Assembly: GCA_964360855.1 (NCBI GenBank)
Contig: CAYHXV010000001.1
Location: 20,042 to 84,041 of the forward strand
Length of the DNA: 64,000 nucleotides
Source of the DNA: an uncultured Candidatus Saccharibacteria bacterium
GTDB taxonomy: Bacteria > Patescibacteriota > Minisyncoccia > Phycocordibacterales > Phycocordibacteraceae
Direction of reading: 5' to 3'
Below are positions 1,344-20,632 of the stretch, in pieces. The notes under the pieces are model-generated. The model made no database searches. It saw only the letters and a list, made by a program, of their open reading frames with translations, and was not told the origin of the DNA. The number at the start of each line of letters is the position of its first letter. Within the stretch, counting starts at the first letter, position 1. Position numbers and translations under genes: made by a program.

Positions 1344-2577
1344 ATCCATAGTATTCCCGCACAAACTCCGCCCGATACTGCGCAAACCTTCCCTCTTCAA
1401 TTGCTTCACGAGCGCCATCCACCAAACGGGTGAGAAACGCGAGGTTATGCAGCGATGCAATGATTTGCCCAAGCATTTCACCACTGCGCAATAGATGCGC
1501 AACGTATGCCACGGTGAATCCTTCACTGCCGCTTGGAAGCGTCCTCTCTAGAGATAGCTCAGAAAGTGTCGTGATGTCACCCTTATACTTTTCATTCAAA
1601 ATATTCATCGCTCCTCCTTTCGTATAGAGCACCCCATGCCTGCCATGCCTAGTGGGTGAGACACAATCAAACGTATCCACACCGTGCGAAATCGCAAGCA
1701 ACAAGTCTCCTGGCTCCCCCACCCCAAGTCCATGCCGAGGCAACTCTTCTGGTAGCTCCTCGAGCGCTTCTAGGGTAAGGGCGAGCATGCTCTCTCCATA
1801 CTTCTTGCTGAAAGACCCTCCGAGACCAAAGCCATCAAACCCCATCGCAGCAATTGCGCGAGTACTCTCTCTTCGCAGGTCAGGAAACTGTCCGCCTTGA
1901 GCGATACCGTAGATGCCCTGAGTCTGGTTAGCACTAATGTTCTGTCGGTGTGCTTTCAACGAACGCTCTGCCCAGCGATGCGTACGGTACATTGCTTCCT
2001 TCTGATACTCATACTCGGCAGATGGAGAGGTGCACTCATCAAAAGCAAAGAAAAGATCAGCACCAAGTTTATGCTGTATCTCAACAGAACGCTCGGGAGT
2101 AAATCGGTGGAGGGAGCCGTCTAGATGTGAGGTGAAGGTGACCCCTTCCTCGTCTATAATGGCCAATTGCCCATGCTGGCTTTGCACGTCCGCATCAAAT
2201 ACCGAGACTCCTTGCTCTGTGGCATTCTTTTCTTCTTCGGACACCGTTTGAATATTCTTTCCAAACCCCGCTCCAAGCGAGAACACCTGAAAGCCACCAG
2301 AGTCTGAAATAGTTGGGCCACTCCAACCCATAAACTTTCCGAGTCCTCCAGCAGTTTCCACCAATGCTTCTCCGGGCTGAAGGTACAGATGGTACGTATT
2401 GGCAAGCACCACCTGAGTACCAAGCATTGTTAATTGCTCAGGGAGAATGCCCTTCACACCAGCCTTGGTACCCACGGGCACGAATGCAGGAGTACGTATA
2501 TCTCCATGCGGAGTGGAGAGCACGCCTGAGCGTGCTTTTCCTTCGCGAGCGCTAATTGAAAATCGAACGGGTCTCAT
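1342..2577 (-). CDS. tgt: Queuine tRNA-ribosyltransferase (tRNA-guanine transglycosylase)
   Basis: 411 aa. Motifs VPVGTKAGVKG, LFFAFDECTSP and HGVDTFDCVSPTRHGRHG (zinc site) are characteristic of Tgt. Confidence 0.9.
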   Translation of the reverse strand: MRPVRFSISAREGKARSGVLSTPHGDIRTPAFVPVGTKAGVKGILPEQLTMLGTQVVLANTYHLYLQPGEALVETAGGLGKFMGWSGPTISDSGGFQVFSLGAGFGKNIQTVSEEEKNATEQGVSVFDADVQSQHGQLAIIDEEGVTFTSHLDGSLHRFTPERSVEIQHKLGADLFFAFDECTSPSAEYEYQKEAMYRTHRWAERSLKAHRQNISANQTQGIYGIAQGGQFPDLRRESTRAIAAMGFDGFGLGGSFSKKYGESMLALTLEALEELPEELPRHGLGVGEPGDLLLAISHGVDTFDCVSPTRHGRHGVLYTKGGAMNILNEKYKGDITTLSELSLERTLPSGSEGFTVAYVAHLLRSGEMLGQIIASLHNLAFLTRLVDGAREAIEEGRFAQYRAEFVREYYG

Positions 2578-2635
2578 ATATAGGTACCGTATGGGGGAAT
2601 AGCGTATTTAGCAAGAAGGTGATGCCGCGGCGAAG

Positions 2636-2670
2636 CTTGACAAGAGGACAATACAGGTATATACTATGTA
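2636..2670 (+). promoter_or_regulatory. Candidate sigma70-type promoter (TTGACA ... TATACT/TATATA) upstream of the lipoprotein gene
   Basis: A TTGACA hexamer is followed 15-18 nt later by TATATACTA. It sits about 60-90 nt upstream of the ATG at 2727. Confidence 0.35.
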
Positions 2671-2726
2671 TGTACTTGCTCTTTCCGTATTTGGACAGAG
2701 CGCAACTCTGGAAAGGAAGTTTCCCC

Positions 2727-3293
2727 ATGACCAACAACAAAAGGACGTGGGGGCTCGTCCTCGCGTCGGCTGCTTCAGCTTTCGTTCTCGGTGGCTGCCA
2801 AACTGTTCCGGGGCCGTACAACGGTCTTGGTCGGGACGGCGCGTCCATGGTCTATGTTCACAAGAACCGGGACTATGGGCCCATGACGGCCGAAGAATAC
2901 GGCGTGGTCACCGACCATGCCAATGACTGCCTCGTCGATGGACGGCGGCAGATGGCCTCAGTCGGCGAGACGTCCGGCACCATGGCCGCAGTTGGTGCCG
3001 TCTCTGGCAGCATCAGTGGCTCCCTCGTCACGCAGTTCATTCCGGGAGGAAGGACCAGCGTGTACGGTCCCTACATCGGCACCATGAATGCTATCAACGG
3101 CGGAGTCGGGGGTCTGGCTATGCAGTCGTCCGTGACGACCAACTTTGTCGGCAGCTGCACCAACGGAGACTTGTCTGACCCTCTCACGCGCGAGAAGGTC
3201 CCGGGCGTCCACGCGTATCCGGCGCCGGTACGAAGCAACAACCGGACCGGCAGAGTTCCTTCCTGGATTACTGCCGCTCCCGCGACCGAGTAG
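2727..3293 (+). CDS. Putative lipoprotein, Gly/Ser-rich, unknown function
   Basis: Start ATG at 2727 with GGAAAGGAAG upstream. Signal peptide with lipobox (LASAASAFVLGGC). The longer ORF-track start at 2556 overlaps the tgt start region. Confidence 0.6.
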   Translation: MTNNKRTWGLVLASAASAFVLGGCQTVPGPYNGLGRDGASMVYVHKNRDYGPMTAEEYGVVTDHANDCLVDGRRQMASVGETSGTMAAVGAVSGSISGSLVTQFIPGGRTSVYGPYIGTMNAINGGVGGLAMQSSVTTNFVGSCTNGDLSDPLTREKVPGVHAYPAPVRSNNRTGRVPSWITAAPATE

Positions 3294-3313
3294 CGCTCTA
3301 CTTCAAACGACTG

Positions 3314-3346
3314 AACCCGCCCCTCAACAGGCGGGTTCTTTGTATT
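3314..3346 (+). terminator. Rho-independent terminator (CCCGCC-loop-GGCGGG + TTCTTTGTATTCTT)
   Basis: GC stem followed by a T-rich run, immediately after the lipoprotein stop. Confidence 0.6.
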
Positions 3347-3360
3347 CTTGTAAGGGAAGG

Positions 3361-3885
3361 CTACTTAACTTCGAGTAGTTCTACTTCAAAGATAAGGGTG
3401 GCGTTCGGGGGAATTGAACTGCCTGCTCCCTGACTGCCATACGCTAGGTCTGGTGGAATAATAAGTTGGCGCTTCCCGCCCACTTTCATACCCGCTACTC
3501 CCTGATCCCATCCCTTGATCACCTGCCCTGCTCCAAGTGCAAAGCTAAACGCCTGTCCTCGAGGCTTTGAAGCATCGAACACGGTGCCATCCGGAAGCAT
3601 GCCCACATAGTGAACAGATACCGTCTTACCAGATACCGCTTCTGCGCCCGTACCCACCACAATATCTTTTCCGGTGAGGGTGGTTGGTAATTGTGCAGGG
3701 GCACCTGCTGGTGTTTCATCTCCATTCATAGCGGTTGGTGAGGTGGTAAGGGTTGTAGTTGCGAACTCAGGCTCTGGCAAGTTCTGCGGAGCCATGAGGG
3801 CCGCGATGGGGGCTCCAAAGAACAGAAGACCCCCTGCTGCAACAACGGCGATAGCGACTGCAATTCCGGTGCCAGTGACATTCAT
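3361..3885 (-). CDS. Membrane-anchored FKBP-type peptidyl-prolyl cis-trans isomerase
   Basis: The C-terminal domain ([16 protein letters not shown]...[38 protein letters not shown]...[10 protein letters not shown]) is a canonical FKBP fold. The N-terminal hydrophobic segment looks like a membrane anchor. The ORF-track start at 3891 is a TTG; the ATG at 3885 is preferred. Confidence 0.85.
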
Positions 3886-3914
3886 AGGCAAATTGATACT
3901 AAAAATTAATACAG

Positions 3915-4220
3915 TTAGTCGGCTTCCGACACGGCTAGTATATCATCCGCAATACTCTCCACAGCCTCTTGCACAGCCTGTTCAGCCCCCGGCACGCGGG
4001 TGGTCAAAAAGGCCTCGAGTGCCTCCTCATCTGCTTCTGCCTCCATAAGTGCGACAAACTCCTCTCGCGTTGGCTCGTCCATGTTCTCAATCATGCGCGC
4101 CAGGGAGCTTTTGAAGATAACCGAATTCAGATCAAGCAGCAATTCATTCTGCTCCTCAAGTGGAAGTGCGGAAAGATCGAGTGCGTCCATGAGTTTCTGG
4201 AAACGATTGGTATCAGTCAT
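3915..4220 (-). CDS. Small acidic hypothetical protein (101 aa)
   Basis: ORF is 2 nt downstream of the 913-aa gene. Very acidic, helical-looking sequence ([10 protein letters not shown]...[12 protein letters not shown]). No known domain recognised. Confidence 0.55.
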
Positions 4221-4222
4221 AG

Positions 4223-6964
4223 TTACTTGATTCGACTAGTAAAGGCTTGTGGATCAATCACCCCAATCATTTCTGGACCCTCGGGAGTCACTCCAACATG
4301 AAACCCCGTACGAGGATCAAACACTGCACTGGTAATCCACTTCTGAGGGATACCGTTGTACATAGTGAGCTTCCCTGCTTCAAAGTATATTTTTTCACCG
4401 GGGTGTTCTCGCGCAAGTTCTTGTACCCGCCTCAAGAATTCGTTATTGGTGGCGTCCCCGCCGCCATACACCAACAGCTGCCTGCCGCCGGGCGCGGACT
4501 CATCCGGCACCCCATACAAGTGGGTCACTGCTGGCTCCACAGGAACCTGGTGTTCGTTTACGAATGGCTCAAGTGCGGACTGTACCGGAGCCTCAGGGGT
4601 AGCTGGGGGTAATTGCTCTGGGGCCGGAGGAGTAACCGTCGCCTGTTCAGGAACTGGTGCTGAGGGTGGAACCTGTTCAGGAACCAGAGCCGCAGGCTCG
4701 CTTGGTAGAGTGCTGTCTAGCTCTTCAGGCTGGGTGAGTGTGTTGTGATCAGAACCATCTACAAACGTCTCAGGAGTAAGTATGGGTGTTCCGCCCGCTT
4801 GTGCACGGTTGAGAGCGGCACTAGGATCTTCAACTGGTGCCGCCGCAACCTCGGGAGAGTGACTTGGTGCCTCCTGAATAGAAGCGTGGTGGCGCAAGTC
4901 TGGCTGCATGGGTCCATCAATGTGCTTGGTCACATACCCGTCCGGAGCTTCAGCGGTTGGTGCAGTGTGTTCAAAAACCAATTGTGGGTCCTTGCCCACC
5001 GCCTGATACCAGACATGCTGGTCGCTATCCACAAAGAGCTTGTCTCCAGGCTGCAGAGTAAGACTCTGTCCATCATGCGCCGCCCCTAGAGCATGCGTGA
5101 GGGCATTGGGGTTTTGCTCTAGGAAGTGTTTCAACTCAGGAGACGCGTGTTCAAGTGTCCCAACTTGGTGCCGCAAATCCACCAACAGTTGTCCGAACCC
5201 TTCTCCTGGTTTGGTACTTACCTCAAGCACTGAAGTGCTTGGTGCAGTTGGGTGCACGGGTGCAGCCTCTGTCCCTGTGTTGAGGGGTGCGCCCTCGTGG
5301 GGGGCTGGGGCTGCTGCTGCAGGCACGTCTAGATCAGTGCCTTGGTGAGTTGGGGTGGCATATTCGTATGATGCTGATGCTCCCCCAAACAGGTGATGGG
5401 TGTCTGGTGCTTCTACGCTGTGCTCGTGTCCCCCAGACGCATGATGACCAAAAAGAAATCCTAAGCCAAGTGAGGTAAAAGCACTTGCAATACGACTCTG
5501 ACGAGCAATTGATTCCTTAACTACAAGTGCCTCTTTTCTCTTTTGAGAAAGACGGCGCAAATTTTTCTCGTCTCCTAAATCACCAAGATCCTTTCGATTA
5601 GAAAGAAGTGCAGAAGCTTTTGTTTCAGTTCCTCGAAAATCATGGCCCTTCTCTATACCCATTTTAACCAGTGCACCAAAAGCACCACCCACACTGGTGA
5701 ACCGAGAAGCGCCTCCAATCCATTTCTTTGCTTCTGGATTCTTGCTTTTTTCTGCCCAAAATCGAAGCGCTGCAGACGTACCCGCAAGACCCAGCGGCGC
5801 AAGTCCAATGACACTTCCGCCAAGAAGGACGCCCGCAGCCGCACCAACACCAAGGAGAGCAGCGGATGTACCAAAAATACGCACTGCCGGAGGAAGTTCC
5901 TTATACCGTTCATAAAACTTATCGAGAGCTTTCTTGTCTCGCTCGTTAAGTCCCTCCTGGCGCTTTTCTAGCTCCCGTTCCTCAAGACCGTCCACAAACG
6001 TGCGCATGGTTACTACGCGTTCATACCGTTCCCGTAGTTTACTTTCATCAATAGAGCCCTTTCCCTTGTATTTCTTTAAACTTTCCAGAACGGCTTCTTT
6101 GGAGCGAGGTCGAAGTGCAAGTCGTGTGTCTAGGGCGGCCTGTTGCGCGGTGTAGTGCTCTGCGCGTGCGCGCACCCAGGCACGTCGTAGGTCCTTAATC
6201 TGAGTTGGAGTACCAAGCTCACCCACATAATTCTCAAGGGCAATGCCCGCAACACCTCGACCCTTGTGATATTCCTTCAACTTCTCGAAGTACAAACTTT
6301 CGGCGTTCTTAGATATTTCTTGCCGTTCCCCAAGTTCGCGCATTCGTCCAGGTACAAATGCCCGAAAAGGGTCTGTGCTTTGTGCTAACCGCGCCTTCTC
6401 ACTTGCAACGGCTTCTTCAAGAGCCGCTCTGGTCTCATGCGCAGTAGCATCTAGCGGTAAACCAGTTTCCGGATCAGAGTCACGCAGCATATCAGAAATA
6501 TCTGCCTTCTTTTCAACGATCTGCTCAACAGGCTCTTCTTGAGCAGTTGGAGCATCATCGAGAGGCACAGTCGGCGACTCTTCTGGTTGCAGCCGCTTCT
6601 TTAGCTTTTCTGGTTTAATTCCAAGAAACTTCGGTTTAGGTCCATCTTTAAAATCTGATTCTTTCTTAGGTGTCCCTCTTTTCCTGCGTGCTGCATCTCG
6701 AGCGCCTTTTGGTTTTCCGCCAAGACTCACGCGCACCTTTTCAGCTTCGTCTTGTATTGTGGGACCATCATTTGATACTGCTGCATTGCGGAGCGCCTCC
6801 TGAGCTCTCTCAAGATCCGTGAGGGGTGCTTTCTCAATCACTACCTCCGGCTGATTGATACCTGCTCGACGCGCCAAATCACTGAGACGATTCAATGGGC
6901 CTGATTCTGGACTCTTGGGTGCCATAGAATTAGGAAAGGTACCGCGCTCTAATAGTGCTTTCAA
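4223..6964 (-). CDS. Large membrane/low-complexity protein (913 aa); putative structural partner of the VirB4-family ATPase
   Basis: Lys/Glu-rich N-terminal ~380 aa. Central hydrophobic segments (IFGTSAALLGVGAAAGVLLGGSVIGLAPLGLAGTSAAL; ASAFTSLGLGFLF). A Pro/Ala/Glu-rich low-complexity region with nucleotide-level short repeats. Globular C-terminal ~100 aa. It overlaps the upstream ATPase gene by 35 nt, suggesting translational coupling. Confidence 0.7.
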   Translation of the reverse strand: MKALLERGTFPNSMAPKSPESGPLNRLSDLARRAGINQPEVVIEKAPLTDLERAQEALRNAAVSNDGPTIQDEAEKVRVSLGGKPKGARDAARRKRGTPKKESDFKDGPKPKFLGIKPEKLKKRLQPEESPTVPLDDAPTAQEEPVEQIVEKKADISDMLRDSDPETGLPLDATAHETRAALEEAVASEKARLAQSTDPFRAFVPGRMRELGERQEISKNAESLYFEKLKEYHKGRGVAGIALENYVGELGTPTQIKDLRRAWVRARAEHYTAQQAALDTRLALRPRSKEAVLESLKKYKGKGSIDESKLRERYERVVTMRTFVDGLEERELEKRQEGLNERDKKALDKFYERYKELPPAVRIFGTSAALLGVGAAAGVLLGGSVIGLAPLGLAGTSAALRFWAEKSKNPEAKKWIGGASRFTSVGGAFGALVKMGIEKGHDFRGTETKASALLSNRKDLGDLGDEKNLRRLSQKRKEALVVKESIARQSRIASAFTSLGLGFLFGHHASGGHEHSVEAPDTHHLFGGASASYEYATPTHQGTDLDVPAAAAPAPHEGAPLNTGTEAAPVHPTAPSTSVLEVSTKPGEGFGQLLVDLRHQVGTLEHASPELKHFLEQNPNALTHALGAAHDGQSLTLQPGDKLFVDSDQHVWYQAVGKDPQLVFEHTAPTAEAPDGYVTKHIDGPMQPDLRHHASIQEAPSHSPEVAAAPVEDPSAALNRAQAGGTPILTPETFVDGSDHNTLTQPEELDSTLPSEPAALVPEQVPPSAPVPEQATVTPPAPEQLPPATPEAPVQSALEPFVNEHQVPVEPAVTHLYGVPDESAPGGRQLLVYGGGDATNNEFLRRVQELAREHPGEKIYFEAGKLTMYNGIPQKWITSAVFDPRTGFHVGVTPEGPEMIGVIDPQAFTSRIK

Positions 6965-9656
6965 CCAACGCGCGATCTCTTCCGTAGGTAAGGAAGGATA
7001 GTTCGCGCAAGTCGTCTACTTGATCTGGATTGCCTGGACGCAGGTCAACCGTCTTCATGTTGAAGGGCTTTTGCGGAACTCCGCCAGAGAGAATACGCAT
7101 ATATGCATTGCGATTCTCAATATTAACGAAGTCGAGAGCGGTGAACACCGGAGCAAACTGTTTTGCAAAGAACTCCGCATCTTCCTCTCCCACGCGAAAT
7201 ACCGCCATGTTGCCCACGTTGCCAAATATAGCTCCCCTAATCTTCTCGTCTACTTGCGCTAAATACTGGTGCGCAATAGTGAGCGAGAGTTTATATTTTC
7301 GAGCTTCAGAAAGAATGCCGGGAATAGAGGAGGTGGTGATGTTCTGGAACTCATCAATGTAGAGGTAGAACGGTGGGAAGTTGGTACCCACTGAGTCTGC
7401 TCGAGAGAGTGCCGCCATGAACAACTTGCCCACAATAATGAGACCGAGGAGGTTAGCGTTTCGCTCTCCCAATCTTCCCTTTGAAAGATTTACCAGCAGA
7501 ATCTTCTTGTTGTCTATAATCTCACGGAACTTAAACGAGGACTCTTGCTGCCCAATGATCGGCCGCATGAAGTCGTTTGAGGTGAACTCATCAATCTTGT
7601 TGGTGATGTAGGGCACTAAATTCTGAAGCGATGCCTCACCCTCGGTCTTGGTGGCAATTTCATTCCAGAACTGATTCACCACCGGGTTGTTGCAGCGAGA
7701 AAGTTTTAGATTCCTAAATTCTGCGTTAGACATCACCCGACCAATGTCCATAAGGGTGGAGCCGGATGCAGGATCCTCCATTACTAACTGTGTTGCATTG
7801 GTGAAATACTGCACGAACATTGGTCCCATTGATTCAGGAACATCGCCATACAACTGTTGGAATATTGCCAGCATCTCATTCACAATGAACGACTTCTGCT
7901 CCGGTCTGCTCGGATCGTACTCAAGCATATTGAGTCCGAACGGTCGGTCTAGGTTTGCGGGATCAAAGTAAATAACATCCTCGTATCGCTCTGGCGGAAT
8001 GCTGGCCAGTACTTCTATAACATCGTTTCCGTGCGGATCGATAAAACAGACGCCATTGCCTGCGCGAATATCCTGATCAATAAGGGTACGGAGCATTCCG
8101 GACTTTCCCGAGCCCGTCTGTCCAATAACATATAAGTGTCGCAACCGGTCCTCTGGTGAAAGACGTATCTCAGATTCTTGTCCACGATAGGTGCTGGTAC
8201 CAAGTATCGTGCCCTCGGTAGGAAGTCCAATAGGAGCAGGGGCGCTCGCTGAGCGGGACTGCTTCAAATGCGGCGAAGACTCAATACCATCGGGAGGGAA
8301 GTGGAATACGGTGGTGAGCTCTCGAAGAGACAGAGGAAGGTTCGTGGCTTTCTCAAATAAACGAAAGGTGAAGTCACGAAAGAAACTCTTGAGACTCCCT
8401 GTATTTGGTCTACGAAATTCAAACCTGTTCCCTTTAGTATTTTCAAACTGATTAAACGGAGCTTCTATTTCAGCAAGGAGCTGCTCCGCACGCTCCTTCT
8501 GCATAGACGAAGCAACGATACGTATATTTGTCTGCACAATGGGAGCCGAGCGTTTTTTCTCCACCTGCTCAATTGCGGCTTCGTCCGTGGGTCGGATCTC
8601 GTCCAACTTTTTCGGAGACACAAACAAGCCTGCCGCCTCGCGAGCAAATTCACCCGCAAGAGTTTCTGGCAATGAAAATGCCCTTCCGCGCTTCTCACCC
8701 TTTCGCAGCTCATGCAGTATGCGCCCATAGTGCTCCACATAGTGGTTGCCGTTTGGTTTGAAGATAATTTGAAGAGACGCGCCCTCGTCCTCGGGAGCAA
8801 TCTTGGCGAAAGCGTTTAGAAGCGCATTCAGTGGGTCATAATCAAAATCCTGGTAGTCTTTGAGGGGCAACATTGGTCTATCTTTGAACTCCGCCACCGA
8901 ACCAGCAGCAGATCCCCCATCAACAAAGACGTTATAGTCGTTTGGTTGTGCTAAGGCCACCGCCTCAGGGAATATGGCATGCAGTTGTTTCTCGAACAGA
9001 TCGCAGCGAGAGTTTGGCACCGAGGCATAAAACATTAAGTGAGAGCGATCCACCGGTACTGCCAACTCAAGCGTCATATACGCGGGCTCACCGCTACGAG
9101 CTGTCTCAAGCGAAAGCATGCCTGAATAAAACTGTTCCATGCCAGAAACCAGTTCCCGCAGGGGGCGCACCCTGTTCCCTTCCTCCGTCTTGTGTTCGGG
9201 AAGCGCTATCTCATACAGCGTCATGTGCAGAGCCTTCCACTCTGGCTGATTCTCTGCGAGTCCCTGTATAGGCATACCGGCAATAAGGTACTGTACGAGG
9301 AAACGGTGGAAGTCGTCGTCCAAGTGCGGACTAGCGAGCTTCTCTAGTACCGCAAAGGCGTTGCGCACCCCTTTCTGTTCTAGCACCCCGCGCAGTTCAT
9401 TAATCGTCTCGTCCGAGCTTGCGGGATCAAGATTAAGGACAAGCTTTTCGGTCTCCTCGTGCGTTAGTGCATACCCCGGTGCAAAGGTATCCTCAGGAGC
9501 CGCGTACCGGTGGTGCACAATACGCTCTCGGGCAACCTCGGTACGTGGCCGTGATTCATTAAGCACTGCAAGTTCTGCTTCCTTGCTCGCAATTTGCTCA
9601 CGCAAATACGCAAGTTCCTCCTCGGGTGAGGTGATTGGGTTCAGGGGCCCTTCCAT
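6930..9656 (-). CDS. VirB4/TraC-like type IV secretion ATPase (FtsK/HerA superfamily; VirB4 vs VirD4 not resolved)
   Basis: 908 aa. Walker A GQTGSGKS is followed by CFIDPHGNDV (a T4SS DPxG motif). Walker B is FYLYIDEFQN. An ARKYKLSLTIAHQ (RK...AHQ) motif is present. The soluble ~500-aa N-terminal domain has no TM helices, which favours VirB4-like over coupling-protein architecture. Confidence 0.75.
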   Translation of the reverse strand: MEGPLNPITSPEEELAYLREQIASKEAELAVLNESRPRTEVARERIVHHRYAAPEDTFAPGYALTHEETEKLVLNLDPASSDETINELRGVLEQKGVRNAFAVLEKLASPHLDDDFHRFLVQYLIAGMPIQGLAENQPEWKALHMTLYEIALPEHKTEEGNRVRPLRELVSGMEQFYSGMLSLETARSGEPAYMTLELAVPVDRSHLMFYASVPNSRCDLFEKQLHAIFPEAVALAQPNDYNVFVDGGSAAGSVAEFKDRPMLPLKDYQDFDYDPLNALLNAFAKIAPEDEGASLQIIFKPNGNHYVEHYGRILHELRKGEKRGRAFSLPETLAGEFAREAAGLFVSPKKLDEIRPTDEAAIEQVEKKRSAPIVQTNIRIVASSMQKERAEQLLAEIEAPFNQFENTKGNRFEFRRPNTGSLKSFFRDFTFRLFEKATNLPLSLRELTTVFHFPPDGIESSPHLKQSRSASAPAPIGLPTEGTILGTSTYRGQESEIRLSPEDRLRHLYVIGQTGSGKSGMLRTLIDQDIRAGNGVCFIDPHGNDVIEVLASIPPERYEDVIYFDPANLDRPFGLNMLEYDPSRPEQKSFIVNEMLAIFQQLYGDVPESMGPMFVQYFTNATQLVMEDPASGSTLMDIGRVMSNAEFRNLKLSRCNNPVVNQFWNEIATKTEGEASLQNLVPYITNKIDEFTSNDFMRPIIGQQESSFKFREIIDNKKILLVNLSKGRLGERNANLLGLIIVGKLFMAALSRADSVGTNFPPFYLYIDEFQNITTSSIPGILSEARKYKLSLTIAHQYLAQVDEKIRGAIFGNVGNMAVFRVGEEDAEFFAKQFAPVFTALDFVNIENRNAYMRILSGGVPQKPFNMKTVDLRPGNPDQVDDLRELSFLTYGRDRALVESTIRARYLS

Positions 9657-9659
9657 GCC

Positions 9660-9700
9660 TTTAATTATACGACAGAGTCGCTAGTTCTAACGACAAAAAC
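9660..9700 (-). promoter_or_regulatory. Candidate promoter with perfect TATAAT close to the ATPase start (short leader)
   Basis: The minus-strand reading ...gtcgTATAATtaaaggcATG places a perfect TATAAT about 7 nt before the start codon. The -35 is weak (TTAGAA). Confidence 0.3.
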
Positions 9701-9714
9701 TGTATACAAACAAA

Positions 9715-10053
9715 CTACTCCCCCTTGCGAATAATGATATGAAAGAATCCGTTCACCACAGACACCACAATAGAGAAGAGTACCGCAATCCAGAATCCAC
9801 CAATAGAGAAGTCTGGCACCAACAGATCTGCCAGCATCACCAATAGTGCATTGATAACGAGAGAGAAGAGTCCCAGGGTAAGGATAGTAACCGGAAGAGT
9901 GAGAACGGTAATGATGGGCTTCAAGAAAATGTTAAAGACTCCAAGCACTATCGCCAACACAATTGCGCCAAGCAGAGTGACGTGCACACCAGGGACTATG
10001 TAGGCAGCAATGAGTATGGCAACGACAGAAACAATCCAGTGTATGAGCGTCAT
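9715..10053 (-). CDS. DUF360 / phage-holin-4-like small membrane protein
   Basis: 112 aa with four predicted TM helices. The sequence pattern resembles the YvlD/DUF360 family. Confidence 0.55.
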   Translation of the reverse strand: MTLIHWIVSVVAILIAAYIVPGVHVTLLGAIVLAIVLGVFNIFLKPIITVLTLPVTILTLGLFSLVINALLVMLADLLVPDFSIGGFWIAVLFSIVVSVVNGFFHIIIRKGE

Positions 10054-10067
10054 AGGTGTTCAGTATA

Positions 10068-10748
10068 CTACGGCTTCACAAACGTGAAGGACTGCACAAC
10101 CTTGTCGAGCAGTTCATACTGCTTCTCAAGCTCAGTGTCCGGAATGTCTTCAGGACTGTCCGGGTCGTCCCGATAACTTGAACCAACGGCAATCTTCTCG
10201 AGCGCTACGCAGTACCCTTCATGTAGCGCTCGATATGAAATGCCTTTTACATACTGCTGCATGCCAGCGTTCTGAAACGCAAAGGCCTTCCAAGTAGTGC
10301 CATTCAGCACCACGTCTGGAAGTACCGTCTCTCCTTGATTGGGAGTTACCTTTAAACACTGAGCGAGTTCTTTTTTGTCCATACTCACCCCAACACGAAT
10401 GAGTGCGGTGTAGTAGCGGGGATAGCTGTGGTCACTCACCGTTGTGAAAGGAGCAATTGAAACAACCGGCGTGCCGGTGGCGTTTGGGAGCGCATTTGTC
10501 CTCCAGTAGGTGCCCAGGTGATAGGAAGTGCCAAAGGTGTTCTCCACGACGGCCGCTTCAGGATACAGGAGCATAAAACCGTATATACCGTTGGTGTATA
10601 TTGCGTCCCCAGTGCTTAGTGGTGTAGTGCTTGCATTTGGAGAACCAGGAGGAATAGCCTGTTTACTAGTTGATACCAGATACCAGGCCACACCTCCTGC
10701 AATAAGCGCAAGCACGAGCAAAAAAACTGCGAGTCCAAAACGTGTCAT
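10068..10748 (-). CDS. Membrane-anchored hypothetical protein
   Basis: An N-terminal TM (FGLAVFLLVLALIAGGVAWYLV) is followed by a ~200-aa extracytoplasmic domain of unknown family. Confidence 0.55.
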   Translation of the reverse strand: MTRFGLAVFLLVLALIAGGVAWYLVSTSKQAIPPGSPNASTTPLSTGDAIYTNGIYGFMLLYPEAAVVENTFGTSYHLGTYWRTNALPNATGTPVVSIAPFTTVSDHSYPRYYTALIRVGVSMDKKELAQCLKVTPNQGETVLPDVVLNGTTWKAFAFQNAGMQQYVKGISYRALHEGYCVALEKIAVGSSYRDDPDSPEDIPDTELEKQYELLDKVVQSFTFVKP

Positions 10749-19381: not shown

Positions 19382-20632
19382 ATGATTCTCCATGTGGACG
19401 GGGATGCGTTCTTTGCCATGTGTGAGGTCTCACGCAGACCAGACTTACGTGGCCGGCCGGTGGTAACCGGAAGAGAACGCGGCATTGTCACCGCAGCAAC
19501 GTACGAAGCTAAGGCACTCGGTATTAGTCGCGCCACGCCAATACACGAAGTCCGGAGTCGCTTTCCGCAGGTAACCATACTCCCTTCGGACTATGAGCTC
19601 TATGCACTGGTCTCGAAACGCATGTATGCCATCACCCGCAGACACGCACCACTGGTTGAAGAATACGGAACGGACGAGTGCTTTGCTGATCTCTCTCACC
19701 TTGGCAATCCACTCGAATCTGCACGAACAATTAAAGAAGAACTCCAGAGTGAACTTAATATGACCTTCTCCCTCGGGATTGGTCCCACCAAGGTATTAGC
19801 GAAGCTCGCCTCCAAACATAAGAAGCCCGACGGGTTCTGGGTGATAACTCCGGAGAACCGTGAAGAGTGTCTGGCACAGACTCCGGTTCGCTTCGTGTGG
19901 GGACTTGGACCAAAGACCGCAAGCAGACTTGAGGGCATGGGGGTACTAACGGCGCTCGACTTCGTACGGCTTTCTAAGTCCTTCGTAGCTCGCGAATTCA
20001 ACGCACCAATTCTTGCACTCTGGGAAGAGTTAACCGGAAACAGCGTACTTCCGGTAGATTCTGCAAATGAAACCGATCAGAAGTCGGTGCAACGTACCCG
20101 CAGTTTCTACCCACCCACCACTGATCCCCAAAGGCTTTTCTCTGAGCTCTCCCAACATGTGGAGCATGGGTGCAGGAAGGTACGCAGACTGGGGATGGTT
20201 GCCACCGGTGCCAGTTTCTTCCTGAAGACCCAAGCATTTCGGTTCCATGGAGGAGCTATAAAACTCACGGTTGGTACTAGTAGCCCGGGAGACATCATTC
20301 CTCTCTTGCGCACTCAGTTTCTGAAGGTATATCAGAAAGATACCCTGTACCGCACCACCGGTATCACCCTGCATGGCCTAGTGCCTAGCGGGAACGCGCA
20401 GCAGGAGTTGTTTGATACGGAGCATAAAGTAGAGAAGAATGAACGACTCATGCTGGCGCTCGACGCACTTGAACACAAGTTTGGTGAACACACGCTCTAT
20501 TTGGGAACGAGCGCACGCAGCATCATGCGGGACCGGGCGCAACCCATTGCTTCGCAAATGCATACAGATGCACTCATACACACCAGCGAGGGTGCGAAGC
20601 GGTTTCCTATTCCGTATATGGGTACCGTTTGA
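19382..20632 (+). CDS. dinB: Y-family DNA polymerase (DinB/Pol IV-like)
   Basis: ILHVDGDAFFAMCEV...GRPVVTGRERGIVTAATYEAKALGI...EEYGTDECFADL is the Y-family palm. It lies 5 nt after the lexA stop, so it is an SOS operon. The gene ends with TGA. Confidence 0.85.
   Translation: MILHVDGDAFFAMCEVSRRPDLRGRPVVTGRERGIVTAATYEAKALGISRATPIHEVRSRFPQVTILPSDYELYALVSKRMYAITRRHAPLVEEYGTDECFADLSHLGNPLESARTIKEELQSELNMTFSLGIGPTKVLAKLASKHKKPDGFWVITPENREECLAQTPVRFVWGLGPKTASRLEGMGVLTALDFVRLSKSFVAREFNAPILALWEELTGNSVLPVDSANETDQKSVQRTRSFYPPTTDPQRLFSELSQHVEHGCRKVRRLGMVATGASFFLKTQAFRFHGGAIKLTVGTSSPGDIIPLLRTQFLKVYQKDTLYRTTGITLHGLVPSGNAQQELFDTEHKVEKNERLMLALDALEHKFGEHTLYLGTSARSIMRDRAQPIASQMHTDALIHTSEGAKRFPIPYMGTV

Follow-up and report, generated by a model that had tools for sequence, protein, structure and literature searches.

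A chromosomal coupling-protein-class ATPase of the DUF8128 family and its candidate tether/adaptor cassette in Patescibacteria

What does an ATPase of the type IV secretion kind do in an ordinary bacterial chromosome, and which of its neighbours, if any, work with it? The question is raised by a 64,000-nucleotide stretch of DNA (hereafter the window; positions 20,042 to 84,041 of contig CAYHXV010000001.1, assembly GCA_964360855.1, deposited as an uncultured Candidatus Saccharibacteria bacterium), in which an ATPase of 908 amino acids (aa) at positions 6930-9656 is followed by a large membrane protein, a small acidic protein of Pfam family DUF5663 and a membrane-anchored FKBP-type peptidyl-prolyl isomerase (PPIase), and preceded by a DUF360 gene. 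An initial annotation made from the sequence took the ATPase for a VirB4 and the whole group for a minimal or divergent type IV secretion system (T4SS) or pilus-biogenesis module; the five open reading frames (ORFs) that it named all lie on the minus strand, at the coordinates given below. Patescibacteria account for much of bacterial diversity and depend on host cells for their living; how they do so is best approached through the few envelope machines that they conserve. Taken together our profile, structural and comparative analyses place the ATPase with high confidence in the coupling-protein class rather than with VirB4, and we lean, with modest conviction, towards reading the locus as a domesticated coupling-protein motor with a tether/adaptor cassette.

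The ATPase and its family

The T4SS-type motif set noticed at the outset is indeed present in the ATPase: GQTGSGKS at residues 513-520 (Walker A, 8097-8120, minus strand), IDPHG at 539-543, YLYIDEFQN at 764-772 (Walker B, 7341-7367, minus strand) and RKYKLSLTIAHQ at 786-797, and in an alignment of 70 ATPase homologues K518, D768, E769, R786 and Q797 are invariant. Judged by these conserved motifs the enzyme would be catalytically intact, and as a member of the FtsK-HerA superfamily it is expected to form hexamers. The ATPase is T4SS-related as first proposed, but as a coupling protein. Pfam recognizes DUF87 (the HerA central domain, matched over the P-loop stretch of residues 492-543 only) and TraG-D_C (26.7 bits against a gathering cut-off of 22), with TrwB_AAD_bind, T4SS-DNA_transf and FtsK below threshold and no FtsK_SpoIIIE domain above it, and the NCBIfam matches are limited to fragments of TraD/VirD4-like models, the full-length coupling-protein equivalog models falling far under their cut-offs. 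Seven distant relatives match TrwB_AAD_bind outright (29.5-72.5 bits against a cut-off of 20.5) along with TraG-D_C and DUF87. The VirB4 models CagE_TrbE_VirB, AAA_10 and TraC_F_IV found no match in the window ATPase (E<=0.01) or in these seven relatives (E<=0.001); the same Pfam test detected the genuine VirB4 of a Shouchella plasmid with AAA_10 at 1e-115. A family profile of 70 members searched against PDB sequences retrieved TrwB (5.9e-7) and DotL (2e-6), then HerA (6e-3), and VirB4 was never among the matches. The initial annotation had named a best score to FtsK or HerA families lacking T4SS-specific domains as what would speak against it; half of this was found, in that the best Pfam match is the HerA-central DUF87, yet the coupling-protein domains are there as well. 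A HerA helicase/translocase was itself considered and rejected, the DUF87 match being confined to the P-loop stretch and no nuclease or defence neighbour having been found. NCBI names within the family run from 'type IV secretion system DNA-binding domain-containing' and 'TraM recognition domain-containing' to 'DUF87 domain-containing' protein.

The AlphaFold model of the ATPase (pLDDT 83.5) comprises a helical N-terminal module (residues 1-125), an alpha/beta domain and a RecA-like nucleotide-binding domain (6930-8216, minus strand), in which residues 585-715, lying between the two Walker motifs, form eight helices that correspond to the all-alpha insertion of coupling proteins. In Foldseek searches TrwB gave the best superposition, with a target-normalised TM-score of 0.65-0.68 over about 430 columns, which is nearly the whole of soluble TrwB; the lowest E-values went to full-length TrwK/VirB4 with alignments across both halves, but at TM-scores of at most 0.32, and HerA structures scored below both. 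The N-terminal half is free of transmembrane (TM) segments, as had been seen before: the peak 19-residue hydropathy is 1.57 and lies within the ATPase core, and the scan found no hydrophobic segment outside that core and hence no N-terminal TM anchor of the kind typical of coupling proteins. In its place residues of about 141-480 (8217-9236, minus strand) form a domain whose alpha/beta part spans about 145-450 in the model and which, through the precomputed annotation of its homologues, would be Pfam DUF8128: PF26449 is assigned to nearly every listed homologue at 42-97% identity. Some family representatives (P0170, P0175, P0181 and P0183) reach 1,200-2,000 aa and carry long C-terminal extensions not matched by Pfam; P0170 has an apparent second P-loop near residue 820.

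The decisive evidence comes from relatives outside the Candidate Phyla Radiation (CPR). A tblastn search with the ATPase matched 585 plasmid records, with 24-29% identity to plasmid coupling proteins over 60-82% of the query. The homologues, of 812-913 aa, are directly followed by a Replic_Relax relaxase in Shouchella clausii, Embleya and Bacillus subtilis, and each of these three plasmids encodes a separate ATPase in the VirB4 position (which Pfam classes as AAA_10/TraG-type in Shouchella and Embleya, and which in B. subtilis is an ATP-binding protein encoded after TcpE), with PrgI or TcpE also in the conjugation clusters of Embleya and B. subtilis. In hhalign comparisons with the Shouchella and Embleya coupling proteins the E-values were 4e-11 and 6.5e-10 for the DUF8128 N-domain and 2e-31 and 6e-47 for the ATPase domain, both domains with probabilities of 97-100%, as against at most 1.2% (N-domain) and 3.6-49% (C-domain) for the VirB4 proteins of the same two Gram-positive plasmids. 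Because the profile, structural and non-CPR evidence agree, we assign the ATPase to the coupling-protein class with a DUF8128 N-terminal domain. The VirB4 assignment must be given up, since neither Pfam, NCBIfam nor the PDB profile search returned a VirB4 and hhalign favours coupling proteins, and dropping it averts a wrong 'minimal T4SS' annotation.

How widely and where is this gene kept? For the comparisons below we used 80 species representatives with close loci and a diverse set of about 77 metagenome loci with an ATPase ORF; the neighbour search covered 159 CPR loci in all. The family is very large, with 20,858 clusters (at 50% identity) at E<=1e-3 and 5,261 at 1e-30, and its homologues bear the names Patescibacteria, Parcubacteria, Paceibacterota and Kaiserbacteria. 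Across the 80 species identity to the window is 62-83% for the ATPase and 59-87% for tgt, followed by FKBP (45-75%), DUF5663 (32-72%) and the large protein (22-43%), and the C-terminal half of the ATPase shows about 80% mean column identity (77 species). The close loci form one collinear block of sigma factor, LysRS, DUF360, ATPase, FKBP and tgt, while the ATPase has map, adk, ndk, dnaX, GtrA or RmuC as neighbours in other lineages. The window itself is ordinary chromosome, encoding tgt, class-I LysRS, an ECF sigma factor, TopA, ClpB, RelA/SpoT, IF-2, SerRS and alanine racemase with uniform GC content across the region. The ATPase is therefore fixed in the chromosome and conserved like a core or housekeeping gene. 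No VirB4-like or relaxase-like gene lay within 10 kb of the ATPase in any of the 159 loci. Within the window cluster, Pfam and NCBIfam searches detected no VirB6/8/9/10/11 or relaxase domains, which bears out their reported lack, and Pfam gave no match to VirB3/VirB6/VirB8-type membrane components. Among window ORFs of at least 600 aa none besides the ATPase is a plausible VirB4, and the window holds no ATPase paralogue.

These features fit what has been described for the phylum. In the passages drawn on here, Quinonero-Coronel et al. (2025, PMC12102498) count 5,713 coupling-protein (VirD4-type) homologues across 2,918 Patescibacteria genomes, about two in each, with only 148 close to virB4 and nearly all at a distance from it; they place the genuine VirB4 cluster of Patescibacteria near dnaA, raise exaptation of the coupling-protein homologues, and report that in Southlakia epibionticum, the sole Patescibacterium with Tn-seq data, the coupling-protein homologue is non-essential and the T4SS essential. 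As separate observations, the complete-looking genome OZ246412.1 (locus L084 1-421) has a second coupling-protein-like paralogue, with a zf_Tbcl_2 domain, 7.5 kb upstream of its DUF8128 ATPase, and on another contig (L086 1-7465) the ATPase comes directly after a type IV pilus cluster (pilins, PilB-like, PilC-like). Some of the taxon titles are odd: for many of the loci L001-L080, with 62-83% identity to Paceibacterota genes, the title reads 'uncultured Candidatus Saccharibacteria', the L028 record is titled 'Bacillota bacterium' and a 50%-identical protein (P0121) 'Patiriisocius sp.'. These look like mislabelled or mis-binned metagenome-assembled genomes.

The N-terminal module and the partner cassette

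Upstream of its DUF8128 domain the window ATPase has a helical module (residues 1 to about 135; 9252-9656, minus strand; motif SPHLDDDFHRFL) that exists elsewhere as a gene of its own. Family members of about 800 aa align only from query residue 141 or so, and a hidden Markov model (HMM) of residues 1-160 matches separate upstream genes (L084 at E 1e-10, L081 at E 2.5e-7), the small gene being homologous to window residues of about 20-135 and sharing a D-x-F-H-D/R-x-L motif. Upstream genes of about 141 aa form a cluster of 28 loci with a median distance of -13 nt to the ATPase. Since the module is a separate gene directly upstream of the ATPase in other lineages, a gene fusion in the window lineage is indicated.

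Directly downstream lies the large, fast-evolving membrane protein (4223-6925, minus strand; 900 aa). It had been described as 913 aa with a 35-nt overlap with the ATPase, but the overlap arose because the longest ORF (4223-6964), which opens with a TTG, was taken: the start of close homologues corresponds to the ATG at 6925, 4 nt past the ATPase stop, and an identical NCBI protein (P0393) is annotated at 890 aa. In the alignment the N-terminal half is charged and helical and the C-terminal half consists of Pro-rich spacers and small conserved domains, those after the TM segments being probably external. Between the two halves a Gly/Ala-rich TM hairpin and a third TM segment (about 5429-5896, minus strand) belong to a conserved juxtamembrane/TM core, RIFGTSAALLG...SAALRFWAEK...GGAFGA...LFGH. 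The TM segments thus number about three in all; the 'globular C-terminus' of the initial annotation is only weakly supported, at a mean pLDDT of 45. Searches of Pfam and PDB gave no match to the large protein, nor did Foldseek against PDB at E<=0.001. Its best-predicted piece (window 4970-5270; residues of about 565-665 in the 900-aa form; block-mean pLDDT 58-83) has a beta-alpha-alpha-beta arrangement plus further strands, with conserved PGEGFGQLL...LQPGDKLFVD. A LysM-like domain, suspected here by eye, was dropped in view of the missing Pfam match even at E<=10 and the missing Foldseek support.

Two nucleotides past the large ORF, as noted before, follows the very acidic protein of 101 aa (3915-4220, minus strand), which has a pI of 4.05 and no TM segment and belongs to Pfam DUF5663 (PF18908, E 1.6e-5; with 25.9 bits it passes the gathering cut-off of 23.7, and the match spans positions 6-82 of the 84 in the profile). 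Its family profile found chance-level matches only among PDB sequences, and the DUF5663 HMM matches members from distant loci at 2e-24 to 2e-16.

Is this pair linked to the ATPase? In 56 of the 68 close loci with both ATPase and FKBP an ORF of 490-1360 aa stands just after the ATPase stop, in most of these 56 with an acidic protein of about 100 aa next in line, and an iterative HMM unites 50 of the 57 large proteins at the post-ATPase position. Distant lineages have an ATPase of about 800 aa with 40-45% identity, and there the large protein comes first, followed by DUF5663, a gene of 123-155 aa and then the ATPase. Searching within 10 kb at loci with at least 5 kb on both sides of the ATPase, we found DUF5663 in 32 of 48 close and 12 of 33 diverse loci, always on the ATPase strand and, in the diverse loci, 7 times upstream and 5 times downstream. 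An ORF of at least 450 aa lies within 150 nt upstream of 44 of the 47 DUF5663 genes, 42 of these ORFs with predicted TM segments, and the large-protein HMM reaches the versions in the 'upstream' arrangement without ATPase false positives. The cassette thus recurs beside the ATPase in two gene orders, in keeping with the initial linking of large and acidic proteins to the motor, and we consider it fairly probable that ATPase and cassette form a functional module. The large/DUF5663 cassette is, however, absent from many loci, and the linkage of FKBP and DUF360 looks lineage-specific.

Transcription unit and neighbouring genes

A perfect TATAAT, already pointed out about 7 nt before the ATPase start, lies at 9664-9669 (minus strand), exactly 7 nt 5' of the ATG when read directly, and has the look of a leaderless-type promoter. 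Of 76 related loci, 67 have a TA[TC]A[ACT]T box near the ATPase start, placed 6-9 nt 5' of an ATG or GTG, whatever the frame of that codon. In the window TATA[AC]T occurs 7-8 nt before the ATG of three consecutive genes, hyp226, DUF360 and the ATPase, and is found at none of the large, DUF5663 and FKBP genes. Seven of the 72 window ORFs have TATA[AC]T 6-9 nt before an in-frame start (9664-9669, the 10062-10067 region, the 10757 region, 28899, 51837, 53088 and about 31819), and because these are 7 of the 33 such hexamers on both strands, the count points to frequent leaderless transcription in this genome. The spacers along ATPase, large protein, DUF5663 and FKBP are 4, 2 and 23 nt, so close a packing being compatible with one transcript, and judging from the sequence the transcription unit likely consists of the ATPase, the large protein, DUF5663 and perhaps FKBP on a leaderless mRNA. 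At 3313-3338 a GC-rich hairpin with a perfect 9-bp stem, GAACCCGCC-N8-GGCGGGTTC, lies between FKBP and a convergent ORF of 245 aa; its plus-strand T-run is good, that of the minus strand weak, and it is the likely shared terminator of both. Separately, a 'TTATCCTC' motif occurs about 45-55 nt upstream of the ATPase start in L004-L006, L008, L010, L013, L015, L016, L020, L028 and L029 but not in the window; a regulatory site and a terminator tail are both conceivable.

The FKBP-type PPIase (3361-3891, minus strand; 176 aa) is what it was taken to be, with a full FKBP_C domain (PF00254, 127 bits, E 3e-37) behind an N-terminal hydrophobic anchor, and it is probably co-transcribed. It adjoins the ATPase in 68 of the 80 close loci, including loci without the cassette, and was detected in only 8 of the roughly 77 diverse ones; outside the window lineage, FKBP and tgt come after the ATPase in just a few loci, at 47-49% identity. 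That it serves as a dedicated folding factor, as had been suggested, is not supported, for it stays by the ATPase and tgt regardless of the large protein and is absent around distant family members. The DUF360 protein directly upstream was likewise correctly recognized (9715-10053, minus strand; 112 aa; PF04020, E 2.6e-29; 4-5 predicted TM segments). It has its own TATACT box 8 nt 5' of its ATG, is often parted from the ATPase by other genes in relatives, and is not in the same transcription unit. For both FKBP and DUF360 the association looks like synteny within the lineage, and we take them for bystanders rather than established partners.

Further out, an N-terminally anchored protein of 226 aa (hyp226; 10068-10748, minus strand) has its own leaderless-type promoter and no Pfam match, and is syntenic upstream of DUF360 and ATPase in 43 of the 80 related loci. 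The convergent 245-aa ORF (2556-3293, plus strand) shows a lipobox-like LVLASAASAFVLGGC after an internal Met; Pfam does not match it, and only 4 of the 80 related loci have a homologue.

Proposed role and comparison with known systems

How might such a module work? In the reading that we modestly prefer, the 908-aa protein would be a chromosomally fixed type IV coupling protein (T4CP) of the VirD4/TrwB class, with the soluble DUF8128 domain instead of or besides the usual TM anchor and, in the window lineage, a small helical accessory protein fused to its N-terminus. Transcription of its gene would be driven by a -10 box of its own and yield a leaderless mRNA, with the large protein, DUF5663 and probably FKBP on the same transcript. 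The large protein, through its charged cytoplasmic half, may hold the TM-less motor at the membrane and connect it to the cell surface, DUF5663 may act as adaptor or chaperone of the motor, and the motor would spend ATP on recruiting or translocating a substrate, be it protein or nucleic acid. Most economically, it would feed the VirB4-type T4SS that Patescibacteria encode elsewhere, near dnaA; that the motor does work with such a distant T4SS we advance only tentatively.

Several observations weigh against this proposal. Ten close loci (e.g. L023, L047, L056 and L058) have the ATPase directly followed by FKBP with no cassette, L032 and L066 have only an ORF of 128 or 163 aa in between, and no DUF5663 was found within 10 kb in any of these 12; over the larger comparison it is absent from 16 of 48 close and 21 of 33 diverse loci. 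Because it is absent from so many loci, the cassette is either not obligatory or encoded elsewhere. The large protein has only 9 database homologues, on which its low-confidence AlphaFold model is based, and its HMM alignments carry a compositional bias of 33.6 bits, with stretches rich in E/K and in G/A, so that its homology across the two arrangements is weaker than the E-values imply. Our literature search found no paper mentioning DUF8128 or DUF5663. Moreover, a non-essential homologue beside an essential T4SS in S. epibionticum (PMC12102498, as far as the passages drawn on here go) argues against a strict T4SS partnership.

That last finding keeps alive a T4SS-independent alternative, in which a coupling-protein-like hexamer, the N-module, DUF5663 and an envelope-spanning large protein would make up a Parcubacteria-specific machine with an ATPase exapted from conjugation, possibly for nucleic-acid or protein exchange at the host interface or for DNA pumping in division or uptake. 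Housekeeping-level conservation and neighbourhoods of the ATPase, the rarity of coupling-protein homologues near virB4 and the exaptation raised in the same passages (PMC12102498), the module's own membrane protein and a weak NCBIfam similarity to the archaeal DNA-import ATPase CedD all speak for it. However, many loci lack the cassette, about three TM segments offer no obvious channel and the nearest non-CPR relatives are ordinary conjugative coupling proteins, and we hold it to be rather unlikely. A bolder form, a Parcubacteria-wide VirB4-independent machine in which a conjugation motor was repurposed and the hypervariable outer half of the large protein served as a surface specificity element, we rate as unlikely; if true, it would mean that a conjugation motor turned into a core cellular device, for example one that carries protein or nucleic acid through the membrane where the cell meets its host. 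It is also conceivable that the ATPase alone is meaningful and that the large protein, DUF5663 and FKBP are neighbours by inherited gene order, as every close locus sits in one collinear chromosomal block and the cassette is dispensable in 10 close relatives and missing from most diverse loci. Against this, the cassette recurs upstream, with the N-module gene in between, in lineages whose other neighbours are wholly different, DUF5663 keeps to the ATPase strand, and the window spacers between ATPase and cassette genes are merely 2-4 nt, which makes a purely positional association improbable.

The VirB4-based minimal T4SS or pilus module with FKBP as folding factor, as initially drawn, could appeal to the Foldseek E-values for full-length TrwK/VirB4 with both halves aligned and to the TM-free N-terminal half. 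It is largely refuted and in our view highly improbable, given the lack of any VirB4 match in Pfam, NCBIfam or the PDB profile search, hhalign probabilities that favour coupling proteins over plasmid VirB4 in both domains, a separate genuine VirB4 cluster in Patescibacteria (PMC12102498, within the passages used) and the inconstancy of cassette and FKBP as partners. Nor is a self-contained minimal T4SS sustained when the large protein has only about three TM segments and the cassette is gone from 10 close relatives, with a short ORF in two more. Relatives on conjugative plasmids and weak PADLOC matches (mad8 at 1.4e-10, HerA models at 7e-6 or weaker) might suggest that the gene is left over from an integrated conjugative element or that it encodes a defence ATPase of the HerA/MADS type. 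We find either barely credible: relaxase, integrase, VirB4 and defence partner were found in 0 of the 159 loci, and the position is stable, with 62-83% identity across species and uniform GC. The defence option was rejected on PADLOC matches limited to the generic P-loop core with no partner gene, and the mobile-element option on synteny, conservation and uniform GC content.

The domesticated motor with its proposed tether and adaptor would matter beyond this locus. An ATPase family conserved like tRNA-modification and aminoacyl-tRNA synthetase genes is of conjugation coupling-protein descent, and two uncharacterised families (DUF5663 and the large mid-TM protein) together with a split or fused N-module can now be tied to it as a defined four-part module. 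This is relevant to the question why there are about two orphan coupling-protein homologues in each Patescibacteria genome, the existence of which is already on record (PMC12102498, in the passages drawn on here).

Compared with known T4CPs (TrwB of R388, VirD4, DotL/IcmO and Cag-beta), the window ATPase shares the RecA-like domain, Walker A/B and the all-helical insertion, with TrwB and DotL as profile matches, but has a soluble N-terminal region of 480 residues (helical module and DUF8128) and no TM anchor, and it is chromosomal and conserved in housekeeping style without relaxase or T4SS genes nearby. VirB4 proteins (TrwK, TraC and the Gram-positive AAA_10 VirB4) also have a large TM-free N-terminal half, and full-length TrwK gave the best Foldseek E-values; however, they show no sequence-profile similarity to the window ATPase in either half, and a separate VirB4 gene exists both on the relatives' plasmids and in Patescibacteria. 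Small acidic partners are known to act on coupling proteins, IcmS, IcmW and LvgA on DotL and TraM on TraD. DUF5663 resembles them as a small acidic protein encoded with a coupling protein, and the adaptor role suggested for it is modelled on this analogy, although it has no detectable sequence similarity to IcmS, IcmW, LvgA or TraM. The two-domain architecture is shared by the Gram-positive plasmid coupling proteins of Shouchella clausii (NZ_CP012476), Bacillus subtilis (NZ_OX419568) and Embleya (NZ_CP108778), which have the same DUF8128-like N-domain plus ATPase; that of Shouchella has no TM segment, like the window ATPase, and the Embleya relative has one. Unlike the window gene they sit in conjugation clusters with relaxase, VirB4, TcpE or PrgI, and the window gene has in addition the fused N-module and the DUF5663 cassette, neither being found on the two plasmids scanned (Shouchella and Embleya). 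Finally, although the passages of PMC12102498 drawn on here describe no DUF8128 architecture, fused or split N-module, DUF5663-large-protein cassette or leaderless promoter, the window gene is VirD4-like, has no virB4 within 10 kb, and almost certainly belongs among the orphan T4CP homologues of Patescibacteria.

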